From Clostridia bacterium (GTDB lineage Bacteria > Bacillota > Clostridia > UMGS1883), in the NCBI GenBank assembly GCA_045656645.1, contig JAZORN010000103.1, positions 18,319 through 82,318 of the forward strand: DNA of 64,000 nucleotides, written 5' to 3'. Position numbers and translations under genes: made by a program. Below are positions 52,231 to 57,371 of this stretch, one piece after another (the stretch's first letter is position 1; every line of letters begins with the position of its first letter). Under the pieces are notes generated by a model. The model did no database searches. It saw nothing but the letters and a program-made list of their open reading frames with translations, and was not told where the DNA came from.

Positions 52231-52305
52231 GCCCCCGTAGTAAAGAGGATATTACAAGCCCCTCCTAAGGGCTAGTCATCGGTTCGATTCCGGTCGGGGG
52301 TGCCA
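52231..52305 (+). tRNA. tRNA-Arg (anticodon CCU), CCA encoded.
   Basis: Manual cloverleaf: acceptor GCCCCCG/CGGGGGT, D-stem GTAA/TTAC, anticodon stem AGCCC/GGGCT with loop CTCCTAA, T-arm ATCGG-TTCGATT-CCGGT. Confidence 0.92.
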
Positions 52306-52311
52306 TAAAAA

Positions 52312-52344
52312 AAGACATTTTTCGCATTGAAAAATGTCTTTTTT
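52312..52344 (+). terminator. Rho-independent terminator after tRNA-Arg.
   Basis: Stem AAGACATTTTTC/GAAAAATGTCTT, followed by TTTT. Confidence 0.75.
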
Positions 52345-52520
52345 CAGTTATATTTGCCTGCGGCAAGTTATATTGCTACGCAGTTATATTCGGCAACGCC
52401 GAGTGATATTGTGCTTCGCACGGTTTAATGGCAAATATAATATCACTGAAACAATCAGGTTTCAATAACACTTTTGCTTTGCAAAAATATCACTCTGTAC
52501 GAAGTACAGAATATCACTTA
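52345..52520. repeat. Family-F hairpin array, left arm of a long inverted repeat.
   Basis: Seven short hairpins separated by AGTTATATT / AATATCACT spacers. It is the reverse complement of 54597-54771. Confidence 0.85.
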
Positions 52521-52565
52521 GACAAAAAAGTAGCCAAAATTAAATGTTTTATAGCCATTTTTATA

Positions 52566-52594
52566 TTGAAATTTGTTTTTTGATGGCTTATAAT
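52566..52594 (+). promoter_or_regulatory. Sigma-A promoter of the nucleotidyltransferase/kinase pair.
   Basis: TTGAAA (52566-52571), a 17-nt spacer, then TATAAT (52589-52594). Confidence 0.6.
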
Positions 52595-52639
52595 GATTAT
52601 AATAGGTGACTTTTTGAAAAATTTCAGGAGGTATGTACG

Positions 52640-53497
52640 ATGAAGGATATTACATTAGTTGTGATGGCGGCAGGAATGGGAAGCAGATTTGGCGGTCTTA
52701 AGCAGGCGGAGAGTATTACCCCCGACGGTAAGGCTATTATTGACTTTTCTGTATTTGATGCTAAAAAGGCAGGCTTTACAAAGGTTGTTTTCATTATCCG
52801 TGAGGATATGAAGGAGGATTTCATCCGCCTTGTAGGAAGCCGTATTGAAAAAACAATTAAGACAGAGTATGTTATGCAGGATTTGTCTCAGCTTCCCGCA
52901 GGAAGAACGAAGCCCTTTGGTACAGGTCACGCAATACTGTGCTGTAAGGACAGCGTGAAGGAGCCTTTTGCAATAATAAATGCTGATGACTATTACGGCA
53001 GCAATGCGTTCTTTGAAATGGCAGAGCATTTAAAAAATGCAAAGAAGGGCGAATTTGCAATGACTGCGTATGAGCTTTCAAATACTTTAAGCCCTAACGG
53101 AACTGTTTCACGCGGTGTGTGCAGTGTGGAAGAAGGCTTCCTTACCGACGTAACAGAGGTTACGAAGATTAATTCTGATATGACATGTGTAATTGACGGA
53201 AAGGATGTTACCCTTGATGCAAAGACACCTGTATCTATGAACCTCTGGGGACTTACACCCGATGTTTTTGAGCAGATTGAAAAGGATTATCAGACATTCC
53301 TTAAAGAGGCTGATTTGTCAAAGGATGAATTTTTCATTCCTACAATTATAAATGATATGGCAAAATCAGGCAAAGCAACCATAAAAGTATATACTAATAA
53401 GGATAAGTGGTACGGCATTACATACAGAGAGGATTTGCCCGAGCTTAAAGAGGCTATAGGAGGATACATCAATGCAGGATTATATGAAGGAATATAA
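52640..53497 (+). CDS. Sugar-1-phosphate nucleotidyltransferase family protein.
   Basis: N-terminal VVMAAGMGSRFGGLKQ, which is the GxGxR(F)x…K nucleotidyltransferase signature. Confidence 0.72.
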   Translation: MKDITLVVMAAGMGSRFGGLKQAESITPDGKAIIDFSVFDAKKAGFTKVVFIIREDMKEDFIRLVGSRIEKTIKTEYVMQDLSQLPAGRTKPFGTGHAILCCKDSVKEPFAIINADDYYGSNAFFEMAEHLKNAKKGEFAMTAYELSNTLSPNGTVSRGVCSVEEGFLTDVTEVTKINSDMTCVIDGKDVTLDAKTPVSMNLWGLTPDVFEQIEKDYQTFLKEADLSKDEFFIPTIINDMAKSGKATIKVYTNKDKWYGITYREDLPELKEAIGGYINAGLYEGI

Positions 53498-54539
53498 TGT
53501 ATTAAAGAGCTTTGCCATTGAGGGTGAGGTTAAAAGTATTGCTCCCTATGGTGAGGGACATATAAATTCTACGTTTCTTGCAGAAACAACAGTAAAAAAC
53601 TACATTTTGCAGAAAATCAACACTGTTGTTTTCAAACAGCCTGAAAACGTTATGAATAACATTTTACTTGTAACAGAGCATATTGAGAAAAAGGGTGCGC
53701 TTTCCCTTACCGTTATTAAAACAAATGCTGGGGAGCCTATGCTCAAAACAGAGGACGGATGCTACAGAGTATATGACTTTATAGAAAATTCACTTACATT
53801 GCAAAAGGCAGAAAGTGCAGAGGATTTTTGTAATGCAGGATTTTCTTTTGGTGAATTTCAGAAGGCTCTTTCTGACTTTGATGCAAGTAAATTAAGTGAA
53901 ACTATAGCACGCTTCCACGATACTCCCAACCGCTTTGAAAACTTTAAGAAAGCGGTAGAGGAGAATAAGTCGGGAAGACTTGACACCTGTAAGGAAGAGA
54001 CAGAGTTTGTGCTTGAACGTAAGGATACATATGATAAAATTGTAAAATCCCTTGCCGATAAGTCTATTCCCCTTCGGGTAACACACAACGATACAAAGCT
54101 TAATAATATCCTTATGGACCCTGAAACAAGAAAGGGTAAGGCAGTTATCGACCTTGATACGGTTATGCCCGGCTCAATGCTTTATGACTTTGGTGATTCA
54201 ATCCGTTTTGGTGCAAGCACAGCCGCAGAGGATGAAAAGGACCTTGACAAGGTGCATTTTGATATCGAGCTTTTCCGTGCGTATGCTGAAGGATTTTTAG
54301 GTGCACTTGGCGACAGTATTACAGAAAAAGAGCGTGAACTGCTTCCATACAGTGCATACCTTATGACAATTGAGTGCGGAATGCGTTTCCTGACAGACTA
54401 TATTGACGGCGATGTATATTTTGCAACAAAATATCCCGAGCATAATCTCGTAAGATGCCGTACACAGTTTAAGCTTGCTTATGAGATGCAGCAGCAGGAA
54501 AAAGAAATGTCAAAGGTTATAGATGAAATATTAAGATAA
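53472..54539 (+). CDS. APH-fold sugar kinase, N-acetylhexosamine 1-kinase (NahK)-like.
   Basis: Contains GEGHINSTF, the Brenner motif VTHNDTKLNNIL, and DLDTVMPG. The start overlaps the upstream gene. Confidence 0.7.
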   Translation: MQDYMKEYNVLKSFAIEGEVKSIAPYGEGHINSTFLAETTVKNYILQKINTVVFKQPENVMNNILLVTEHIEKKGALSLTVIKTNAGEPMLKTEDGCYRVYDFIENSLTLQKAESAEDFCNAGFSFGEFQKALSDFDASKLSETIARFHDTPNRFENFKKAVEENKSGRLDTCKEETEFVLERKDTYDKIVKSLADKSIPLRVTHNDTKLNNILMDPETRKGKAVIDLDTVMPGSMLYDFGDSIRFGASTAAEDEKDLDKVHFDIELFRAYAEGFLGALGDSITEKERELLPYSAYLMTIECGMRFLTDYIDGDVYFATKYPEHNLVRCRTQFKLAYEMQQQEKEMSKVIDEILR

Positions 54540-54548
54540 AGGAAAAAA

Positions 54549-54575
54549 GGCATCTGCATTGCAGGTGCCTTTTTG
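54549..54575 (+). terminator. Rho-independent terminator after the kinase gene.
   Basis: Stem GGCATCTGC/GCAGGTGCC, followed by TTTTT. Confidence 0.7.
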
Positions 54576-54596
54576 AAAATAGTATAAAAAGTAGTT

Positions 54597-54771
54597 TTAG
54601 TGGTATTCCATCTTTGATGGAGTGATATTTTTGCAGCGCAAAAGTGTTATTGCAAACTATGTTTGCAATTATATTATATTTGCCTTTTAACTGTGCGGAG
54701 CACAATATCACTCGGCGATAGCCGAATATAACTGCGAAGCAATATAACTTGCCGTAAGGCAAATATAACTG
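54597..54771. repeat. Family-F hairpin array, right arm of the inverted repeat.
   Basis: See 52345-52520. Confidence 0.85.
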
Positions 54772-54805
54772 AAAAAAGCGTACTGAAACTTCAGTACGCT
54801 TTTTT
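54772..54805 (-). terminator. Rho-independent terminator after tRNA-Gly.
   Basis: Stem AGCGTACTGAA/TTCAGTACGCT, flanked by A6 and T6 runs. Confidence 0.75.
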
Positions 54806-54806
54806 C

Positions 54807-54881
54807 TGGAGCGGAAGACGAGATTCGAACTCGCGACGTTCACCTTGGCAAGGTGACGCTCTACCACTGAGCCACTCCCGC
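54807..54881 (-). tRNA. tRNA-Gly (anticodon GCC), CCA encoded.
   Basis: The minus strand reads GCGGGAGTGGCTCAGTGGTAGAGCGTCACCTTGCCAAGGTGAACGTCGCGAGTTCGAATCTCGTCTTCCGCTCCA, which folds into a standard cloverleaf. Confidence 0.95.
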
Positions 54882-57211: not shown

Positions 57212-57218
57212 AGCGTAG

Positions 57219-57371
57219 CAATAAAGAAGAAGTTACCGCTTCTCACCTCACGGGGTTTACTTGTGTGGTTAATAATTATGGGCGTTTTTATGATGCTTGT
57301 TTTTTGGAGCGGTAGGTTTTTCCTGCCGCTTTTGTTATGTGCGGCACAAATTTTCTTTGGAGGTGTTTTCC
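57219..57371 (+). promoter_or_regulatory. infC operon leader with an intrinsic terminator/attenuator (L20-leader-like).
   Basis: About 150-nt leader. Hairpin GCGGTAGG-ttttt-CCTGCCGC followed by TTTTGTT at 57309-57336, upstream of the infC RBS. Confidence 0.5.

Follow-up and report, generated by a model that had tools for sequence, protein, structure and literature searches.

Gut-1 (RF01706) has been listed in Rfam since 2010 as a small RNA (sRNA) of the gut without an assigned function; it was described from 43 examples, all from human gut metagenomes, and was called an sRNA from its covariation (Weinberg et al. 2010, PMC2864571). The four-helix-bundle proteins of PF05635/TIGR02436, which include the protein of 23S rRNA intervening sequences and Avd, the accessory protein of diversity-generating retroelements (DGRs), are abundant but uncharacterised outside DGRs. 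The literature treats PF05635 as an Avd-like and otherwise uncharacterised family whose genes occur in small insertions in rRNA genes and in cas loci, and an R-x3-S-x3-N-x2-E motif has been noted in it (PMC3936711). Here, we analyse two hairpin arrays, F-L and F-R, that stand beside convergent tRNA genes and bracket a two-gene cassette in a 64-kb stretch of DNA from a Clostridia bacterium (contig JAZORN010000103.1), referred to as the window. The arrays belong to the known family Gut-1; what is new is that its unit is a two-half module, that this module is a dispersed repeat, that it is linked to a four-helix-bundle gene, and that it contains a predicted internal promoter. With confidence only a little above even, we read the two arrays as gene-less copies of the Gut-1 module, the linkers of which would be bound in trans by a four-helix-bundle protein, and the cassette between them as a bystander.

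What the window arrays share with Gut-1 is a set of four conserved linkers, three covarying hairpins, and a habitat in gut Clostridia. In Rfam, however, Gut-1 is a 77-nt sRNA, whereas the unit found here measures ~175 bp, has two halves and includes a long-range helix, and neither an internal promoter on the opposite strand, nor multi-copy dispersal, nor a link to a four-helix-bundle gene is recorded there. The gene downstream of gene-bearing copies is a clear member of PF05635/TIGR02436, and it resembles the namesakes of the family in being carried by small insertions that are linked to stable-RNA genes and hairpin loops. It differs from them in that no reverse transcriptase or template-variable repeat lies nearby, in that the copies are not inside rRNA genes, and in that the window lacks the gene; the PF05635 literature does not describe a hairpin-linker array as an upstream partner.

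The window arrays are Gut-1 modules

F-L occupies positions 52345-52520 (+ strand) and F-R positions 54597-54771 (- strand). Each arm consists of eight 9-nt linkers (AGTKNTATT, then AATANCACT) that alternate with seven small hairpins, and each is laid out in two halves, with four forward linkers (AGTTATATT or AGTGATATT), a centre, and four reverse linkers of the AATATCACT type. The terminator-proximal half of F-L, which is the part modelled by Rfam, spans 52345-52414 (+) and contains three AGTTATATT linkers, one AGTGATATT linker and hairpins 1-3; its counterpart in F-R lies at 54700-54771 (-). The distal half of F-L (52435-52519, -), with linkers AATATCACT and AATAACACT and hairpins 5-7, matches Gut-1 on the opposite strand. 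The motif AGTKWTATT occurs 17 times in the window against an expectation of 3.9 +/- 1.8, with 14 of the 17 inside F-L and F-R, and no third copy of the array was found in the 64 kb.

In an Rfam scan, every half-array matched RF01706. The terminator-proximal half of F-R scores above the gathering score of 50 (51.8 bits), and the two halves of F-L fall below it (46.9 bits, E = 1.7e-7 for 52345-52414, and 35.2 bits, E = 1.5e-4 for 52435-52519). Four GUGAAAU-type linkers and three covarying hairpins, the features that define Gut-1, are present in the window arrays, and the seed alignment of RF01706 itself holds the GUKAUAU linker variant of the window, with one example that reads as a tRNA, a terminator, and CAGUUAUAUUCGCC. 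The model spans only the terminator-proximal half of the array. The first-pass annotation of this locus, made by a model from the letters and a list of open reading frames, had not recognised the array type, which can now be named. It was right to set aside CRISPR, if this is taken to mean direct repeats that are identical, 24-48 nt long and set apart by unique spacers of about the same length, since the repeats here are 9 nt, stand in both orientations and are separated by palindromes of 7-16 nt; we also agree that the arrays are neither attC nor REP, and one of its suggestions, protein-binding iterons, is a fair description of the linkers.

Its account of the two arms stands for the most part. 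The claim that F-R is the reverse complement of F-L is borne out by a global alignment (152/179 positions, 84.9% identity), where random windows average 50.6% and reach at most 55.1%, and an inverted-repeat search finds segments of the two arrays that are 87-100% complementary. All of the loop differences that it listed (TGC/TTAC, TAC/TTC, AAC/TATC, TTC/TCC and TTT/GCT) are present, as are the replacement of the seventh stem and the compensatory base pair, a C-G inserted into hairpin 5, and the tRNAs, terminators, promoter, cassette and arrays of its layout were each called by tools in the same places. Hairpins and spacers are indeed what the arms are made of, but they do not form a simple series, since each arm has two opposed halves.

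Hairpins and a long-range helix covary across the family

A scan of the genome collection with a three-linker pattern returned at least 120 matches, and among the matches listed almost all are metagenome-assembled genomes of gut Clostridia, such as Acutalibacteraceae and Oscillospiraceae. An absence of copies elsewhere would have counted against the first-pass annotation; copies are in fact abundant. We parsed 130 arrays, of which 86 have both halves complete (median length 173 nt), and aligned 61 distinct full arrays. Their consensus fold (RNAalifold) contains hairpins 2-7 and an 11-bp long-range helix, X/X', in which linker 1 and the 5' arm of hairpin 1 pair with the array centre. In F-L, X (TTATATTTGCC) lies at 52348-52358 (+) and may pair either with the 3' arm of hairpin 1 or with X' (GGCAAATATAA; 52431-52441, +), as indicated by RNAalifold and covariation.

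Across the 61 arrays, 97.3% of cells are paired on this fold and 25 of 43 pairs show double changes. Changes on both sides of a pair number 424 cells, as opposed to 124 +/- 9 when shuffled (a level reached in 0 of 500 shuffles) and 18-59 when partners are slid. At its variable position, X/X' is T-A in 33 arrays, A-T in 26 and C-G in 13, with 6 discordant, and hairpin 1 covaries as well, though it is a rival of X/X' for the same 5' arm. The strength of this covariation in both the hairpins and the 11-bp helix argues that hairpin formation is selected, as had been proposed from the two arms. The stems are almost purely Watson-Crick (~6 G.T in ~1750 pairs) and one-sided wobble changes are rare; a test of strand by G.T versus A.C pairs was nearly uninformative, as wobble pairs are too scarce. 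On the strand that reads AATATCACT, the loops are mostly C-GNRA-G or C-GNA-G, and this loop polarity flips between the halves, each of which is thereby directed away from the centre.

Between forward and reverse linkers we find no ordered pairing: mutual information is low and shows no nested pattern. On these grounds, we rejected a stack of four-way junctions formed by linker pairing. Because they do not pair, the linkers instead behave as putative repeated recognition motifs with one free position.

Loose three-linker patterns on viral contigs gave mostly chance or low-complexity matches, and only those at loci L021, L187, L230 and L240 are real. On one further viral contig (L138:1488-1854), a long tandem run of (G/A)CAATTTCA(C/T)GA-type units contains an ATTTCAC heptamer without hairpins; it is probably unrelated to the family and possibly a coding repeat.

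A four-helix-bundle gene follows the array in gene-bearing copies

At 10 genome loci from different species, the array is directly followed by a gene for a protein of 116-135 aa that belongs to PF05635/TIGR02436 (Pfam E ~1e-28; TIGR02436 112 bits; 2RLD E = 1.5e-40) and carries the R-x3-S-x3-N-x2-E motif. These proteins are 74-94% identical across the 10 loci, and the other neighbours differ. The closest solved structures, 2RLD and 2GSC, are of uncharacterised proteins with five chains each, and the subfamily is very abundant, with many clusters of hundreds, on very short contigs. In seven loci of 8 kb, no co-directional reading frame of reverse-transcriptase size lies beside the four-helix-bundle gene, and the Pfam families listed for the immediately adjoining genes include no reverse transcriptase. 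The absence of a reverse transcriptase in the seven 8-kb loci led us to reject a canonical DGR.

The window arrays show the same architecture and flanks as the gene-bearing copies, namely a terminator hairpin, X, four linkers, X', and four reverse linkers. Four gene-bearing arrays (L244, L260, L263 and L289) align with them column for column, and the window's variant of hairpin 1 (TTTGCC/GGCAAA) is common to five others (L367, L382, L392, L394 and L406).

More distant relatives of the protein (44-54% identical) are encoded at 12 distinct loci on viral contigs, where a repeat array mostly lies directly upstream, with a weak repeat at L433. The repeat changes with the protein clade, with linker variants that include GTGAAAT, ATGATAT, GTGAAGC and others. 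L418 and L419 have the canonical GTGAAAT linker and score 62-73 bits against Gut-1, L420 and L421 have ATGATAT and score 60 bits, and L425 and L426 have GTGAAGC in a full Gut-1-like layout; L424, L427, L428, L430 and L432 have simpler repeat blocks with fewer or no hairpin spacers. A complete tRNA lies directly upstream in 4 viral loci, and at 3 more, sequence resembling a tRNA 3' end can be read by eye, where ARAGORN calls no tRNA.

At L420, L421 and L428, the terminator and array are preceded only by pieces that resemble a tRNA 3' end (T-arm, 3' strand of the acceptor, and CCA), and these may be an att-like remnant. In L425 and L426 (positions 1100-1200; linkers GTGAAGC/CCTTCAC), the last linker leads directly into the ribosome-binding site and start codon. 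As there is no promoter between the two, the gene at these loci would have to be transcribed from within or through the array. L418 (1057-1475) carries two complete Gut-1 double modules in tandem upstream of a single four-helix-bundle gene.

Arrays follow terminators and are dispersed as small units

The arrays occur singly in more than 100 unrelated contexts, and the genes downstream of them are functionally unrelated, except for the four-helix-bundle gene. Their polarity is consistent. In 63/74 arrays, linker 1 is abutted by a long hairpin, and the gene to the left mostly runs in the same direction as the array (56:20), with its end ~45-50 nt upstream. The last linker carries a fused outward sigma-70 promoter in 22/74 arrays, as compared to 1/74 on the other strand. 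In 13/130 arrays there is a tRNA 33-51 nt upstream of the left end (12 anticodons in all), and in 0/130 at the right end.

Both window arrays follow this order of tRNA, terminator, and array relative to their own tRNA, and because the two tRNA genes are convergent and each has a module, the arrays are inverted around the cassette. On the left, tRNA-Arg(CCT) (52231-52305, +; called by ARAGORN, Rfam tRNA 56.6 bits, 100% identical between strains) is followed by a bidirectional terminator-like hairpin (52308-52344; an A-run, a stem of 16-17 bp, and a T-run) that abuts linker 1 of F-L and constitutes hairpin 0 of the module. Its outer stem, AAAAAAGAC...GTCTTTTTT, also accompanies related arrays in L355 and L393, of which the latter follows a tRNA-Gln and the former has no tRNA. 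On the right, a second bidirectional terminator-like hairpin (54771-54806) separates F-R from tRNA-Gly(GCC) (54807-54881, -; ARAGORN, Rfam 68.5 bits).

Dispersal is most visible in metagenomes, where the hairpin-1 variant of the window has 48 copies by pattern, ~25 of them on different long contigs of sample Ga0256405. These loci are not from the window's species, and comparison of presence and absence at the same locus covers four strains. The metagenome copies are near-identical, and the unit that they share spans a constant 35-nt hairpin, the array, and ~90 nt beyond. It measures ~920 bp when gene-bearing, as in L406, which is complete with an intact four-helix-bundle gene, and ~310 bp when gene-less. 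Both ends can be seen for 14 copies, and in 6 of these the flanking host sequences are perfect complements of 8-18 nt with an A-run and a T-run; only 3% of shuffled flank pairs reach such complementarity. Flanks of this kind place the unit inside a terminator hairpin. The ends are imperfect inverted repeats (AGTGCGT...TAGGGATT on both), and a possible TT/TTT duplication is seen. No HUH/Y1 transposase or other recombinase was found beside any copy. The visible 64 kb of the window holds two copies, 85% identical to each other. Judged from these sequences, Gut-1 appears to be a repeat that is dispersed among gut Clostridia and mobile in part.

Among L374, L376, L382, L398 and L405, copies that are otherwise near-identical, the loop and top of the long end hairpin, ~35 nt upstream of the array, are found in both orientations (AATAGGGATTATT versus AATAATCCCTATT), which is as would be expected from recombination between the arms of a DNA palindrome.

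A predicted promoter lies inside the module

A promoter scan predicts a TG-extended promoter inside F-L and another inside F-R, in both cases on the strand that Rfam does not model. In F-L, it runs from 52465 to 52437 (-; TTGAAA-17-TATTAT with the TG extension), is aimed into the tRNA-proximal half, and has its -10 element within X'; in F-R, the equivalent site runs from 54650 to 54677 (+; TTGCAA-16-TATTAT). This internal site is the strongest promoter-like peak of the family and is found in 30/76 distinct arrays. The predicted RNA is ~120 nt long and carries the GNRA/GNA loops. A rightward promoter at the array centre, suggested by a TATAAT without a -35 element, is not supported by the scan. 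The strand that Rfam models, with its putative sRNA role, lies downstream of a terminator, and the scan predicts a promoter only on the opposite strand.

The cassette between the arrays is a bystander

The cassette comprises an NTP_transferase gene (52640-53497, +) and an APH-family kinase gene with its own terminator (53472-54539, +), both assigned by Pfam and NCBIfam, and its operon promoter (TTGAAA-17-TATAAT, 52566-52594, +; 11/12 matches in the promoter scan) is a neighbour of the module and lies outside it. The proteins resemble a sugar-1-phosphate nucleotidyltransferase and an APH enzyme of the N-acetylhexosamine-1-kinase-like type, a name that one source gives to a 64% identical homologue. 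The pair is kept as an operon in varied contexts (L407-L415), which suggests a salvage pair of an anomeric sugar kinase and a nucleotidyltransferase.

Kinase homologues form a graded series of identity. Four close strains (L407-L410; kinase 95-96% identical), which make five strains with the window, share with it the surroundings of the cassette, the pair of arrays and the direction of the cassette, and homologues at 71-80% identity stand in other contexts without tRNA or array, with the nucleotidyltransferase gene alongside at 77-80% and not at 71%. The first-pass annotation had tied the arrays to the cassette and proposed to look for inversion of 52521-54596 and for synteny in relatives. There is one orientation in all five strains, the cassette occurs in relatives without arrays or tRNAs, and the arrays do not accompany it. 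With a single orientation and cassettes elsewhere that lack arrays, we rejected both a composite transposon and an invertible segment. Given also that each array has the same polarity to its own tRNA and that arrays occur in more than 100 other contexts, the comparisons indicate that the arrays belong to their tRNAs and to the Gut-1 family, and that the cassette is a bystander.

Relative to L408, F-L is 99.4% identical and F-R 97.4%, apart from a clean 22-bp deletion by which the close strains lack one hairpin-plus-linker unit. The tRNAs are 100% identical and the neighbouring genes 91-96%, and this higher conservation of the arrays than of the neighbouring genes places them under constraint. 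The close strains also differ in two other respects. In L407 (1031-2357; breakpoint ~52303), KilA-N and resolvase-domain genes replace tRNA-Arg upstream of the terminator, and homology to the window resumes exactly at the tRNA-Arg 3' end (CCA), so that this insertion looks like an integrated element that uses the tRNA-Arg 3' end. The kinase terminator (54540-54596) is AAAAAGGCATCTGCA.TGCAGGTGCCTTTTT in the window and a completely different AAAAAGGGGATG...CACCCCCTTTTT in L407-L409, and as both flanks are conserved, the hairpin has been replaced.

A direct 9-mer repeat, AAAAAGTAG, lies just inside both arrays (52525-52533 and 54586-54594), and a similar string, AAAGTAG, is found in the tails of metagenomic repeat copies. 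Further along the window, a ribosomal protein L20 leader (RF00558, 66.8 bits; 57218-57343) lies 5' of infC-rpmI-rplT, an ordinary feature that confirms a context of the Firmicutes type.

Discussion

In the reading that we prefer, the module is a structured non-coding unit of ~175 bp that in gut Clostridia directly follows a terminator-like hairpin, often that of a tRNA, and in complete copies is itself directly followed by a PF05635/TIGR02436 gene. The 9-nt linkers would serve as recognition sites of the four-helix-bundle protein, which would also act in trans on gene-less copies, and the hairpins would space the linkers and present them single-stranded, as RNA or DNA. The tRNA-proximal half would be transcribed from the internal promoter, antisense to the Rfam model, up to the bidirectional terminator, giving an RNA of ~120 nt. 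Autoregulation and propagation of a small selfish element are the likely purposes of such a system.

Several observations weigh against this proposal. A tblastn search of the 64-kb window with three proteins of the family gave no match, such that the window copies are gene-less and action of the protein on them in trans is assumed. That linkers vary with the clade of the protein could be due simply to their linkage, if a single element diverged as a whole. Only ~40% of arrays have an internal promoter above the threshold, and none is evident in the canonical GTGAAAT variant; as an RNA from this promoter is predicted to start inside X', it cannot include the X/X' helix that covaries. For the mobile form, terminal inverted repeats and target duplications are delimited only roughly, and the terminators in the window are intact rather than split. 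Binding, transcription and transposition of the module are all predictions from sequence.

The alternative closest to the Rfam record, that the arrays are host sRNAs on either strand, for example sponges for an RNA-binding protein of the host, with the two halves as convergent or overlapping sRNA genes and no dependence on the four-helix-bundle protein, seems to us unlikely, although it is the rival to which we give most weight. It would account for the Rfam match and the strong covariation, for the plausible ~120-nt transcription unit formed by the internal promoter and terminator, for loops that are mostly GNRA/GNA closed by C-G on the strand that reads AAUAUCACU, and for window copies that are conserved at tRNA-like levels with no adjacent protein gene. 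Yet stems that are purely Watson-Crick with few one-sided wobble changes are unusual for RNA, the motif stands in both orientations within the unit, the Rfam strand follows a terminator and has no promoter, and the linkage to one protein family with matching linker variants is left without account. Those same Watson-Crick stems would suit a functional form of single-stranded DNA, in which mini-hairpins with C-GNA-G and C-GNNA-G loops, formed on the lagging-strand template to either side of the centre, would serve the replication or recombination of a mobile element, as in IS200/IS605 or in repetitive extragenic palindromes (REP) and their associated tyrosine transposases (RAYT). Hairpin 2 is conserved with a GC stem of 2-3 bp and a GAA/TTC loop, GNA triloops are frequent (d(GCGAAGC), a stable mini-hairpin, is one C-GNA-G loop type), loop polarity flips between the halves, and the family is multi-copy, inserts into hairpin loops, and has the end-hairpin loop flipped in several copies. 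We nonetheless hold this to be improbable, given that no HUH/Y1 transposase or other recombinase was found beside any copy and that DNA folding energies are similar on both strands.

To a host cis-regulatory or insulating DNA, with linkers bound by a host DNA-binding protein between a terminator and the next promoter so as to insulate tRNA transcription units or regulate the promoter downstream, we assign a similarly low probability. The consistent order of terminator, array, and promoter (the latter 50 nt after F-L) and the failure of forward and reverse linkers to pair, as would be the case for recognition sites, fit such a role, but a linker spacing of 16-25 bp gives no helical phasing, a duplex operator would have no need of hairpin covariation, F-R faces a terminator rather than a promoter, the genes downstream are unrelated apart from the four-helix-bundle gene, and near-identical multi-copy spread points to a selfish element. 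Least probable by far is the idea that the two arrays form the inverted termini of a composite element, or serve as substrates by which the 2.1-kb nucleotidyltransferase-kinase segment is inverted or excised. Inverted repeats of ~175 bp at 85% identity could support homologous inversion, and a 9-nt direct repeat lies just inside both arrays; the single orientation in the window and four close strains, the cassettes without arrays or tRNAs at 71-80% identity, and the single arrays in more than 100 contexts speak against it, and with its own promoter and terminator, the cassette would not be changed in any obvious way by inversion.

Our preferred reading, of gene-less modules bound in trans, has parallels in other systems. 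Like miniature inverted-repeat transposable elements (MITEs) and REP or bacterial interspersed mosaic elements (BIMEs), the arrays are short, structured, multi-copy intergenic repeats at gene 3' ends, with gene-bearing and gene-less forms and imperfect inverted ends. They differ in an internal architecture that is kept across lineages with different linkers and covaries position by position, unlike the interiors of ordinary MITEs, in that no transposase was found, in an apparent target of terminator hairpin loops or the 3' side of tRNA terminators, and in having no REP-like GTAG head or RAYT gene. Repeat-array operators and centromeres bound by small oligomeric proteins, such as the omega protein or ParR (parC iterons), likewise contain direct and inverted copies of 7-9-nt motifs by the promoter of a small-protein gene, and TATCACT in the window's linker would fit the WATCACW heptad of omega proteins from inc18 plasmids. 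Here, however, the sites are split by selected hairpins, the protein is a four-helix bundle rather than a ribbon-helix-helix, and the copies are scattered over chromosomes. Bacterial class C group II introns are comparable in target choice only, as they also prefer to insert at intrinsic terminator hairpins; the Gut-1 modules have neither the RNA structure of an intron nor a reverse transcriptase, and they appear to insert within the loop and not after the T-run.

For annotation, the lesson is that arrays of this kind beside tRNAs are signs of a repeat family and do not delimit the genes that lie between them, and that the Rfam model covers half of the unit, possibly on the non-transcribed strand. 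A broader proposal, which we advance tentatively and with less confidence than our reading of the window, is that Gut-1 arrays are the cis partner of Avd-like proteins and together form one class of miniature selfish element (~0.9 kb, or ~0.3 kb when gene-less) that would home to hairpin loops and to the 3' ends of stable RNAs and terminators, with a pentameric protein reading the linkers. If true, this would give a common explanation for PF05635, including the reading frames of 23S rRNA intervening sequences, and for the Gut-1 motif. Should the linkage hold, Gut-1 and PF05635 would become testable together, with natural specificity variants in at least 4 clades, and the pair would represent a mobile unit with a recognisable target in terminator or tRNA-proximal hairpins.

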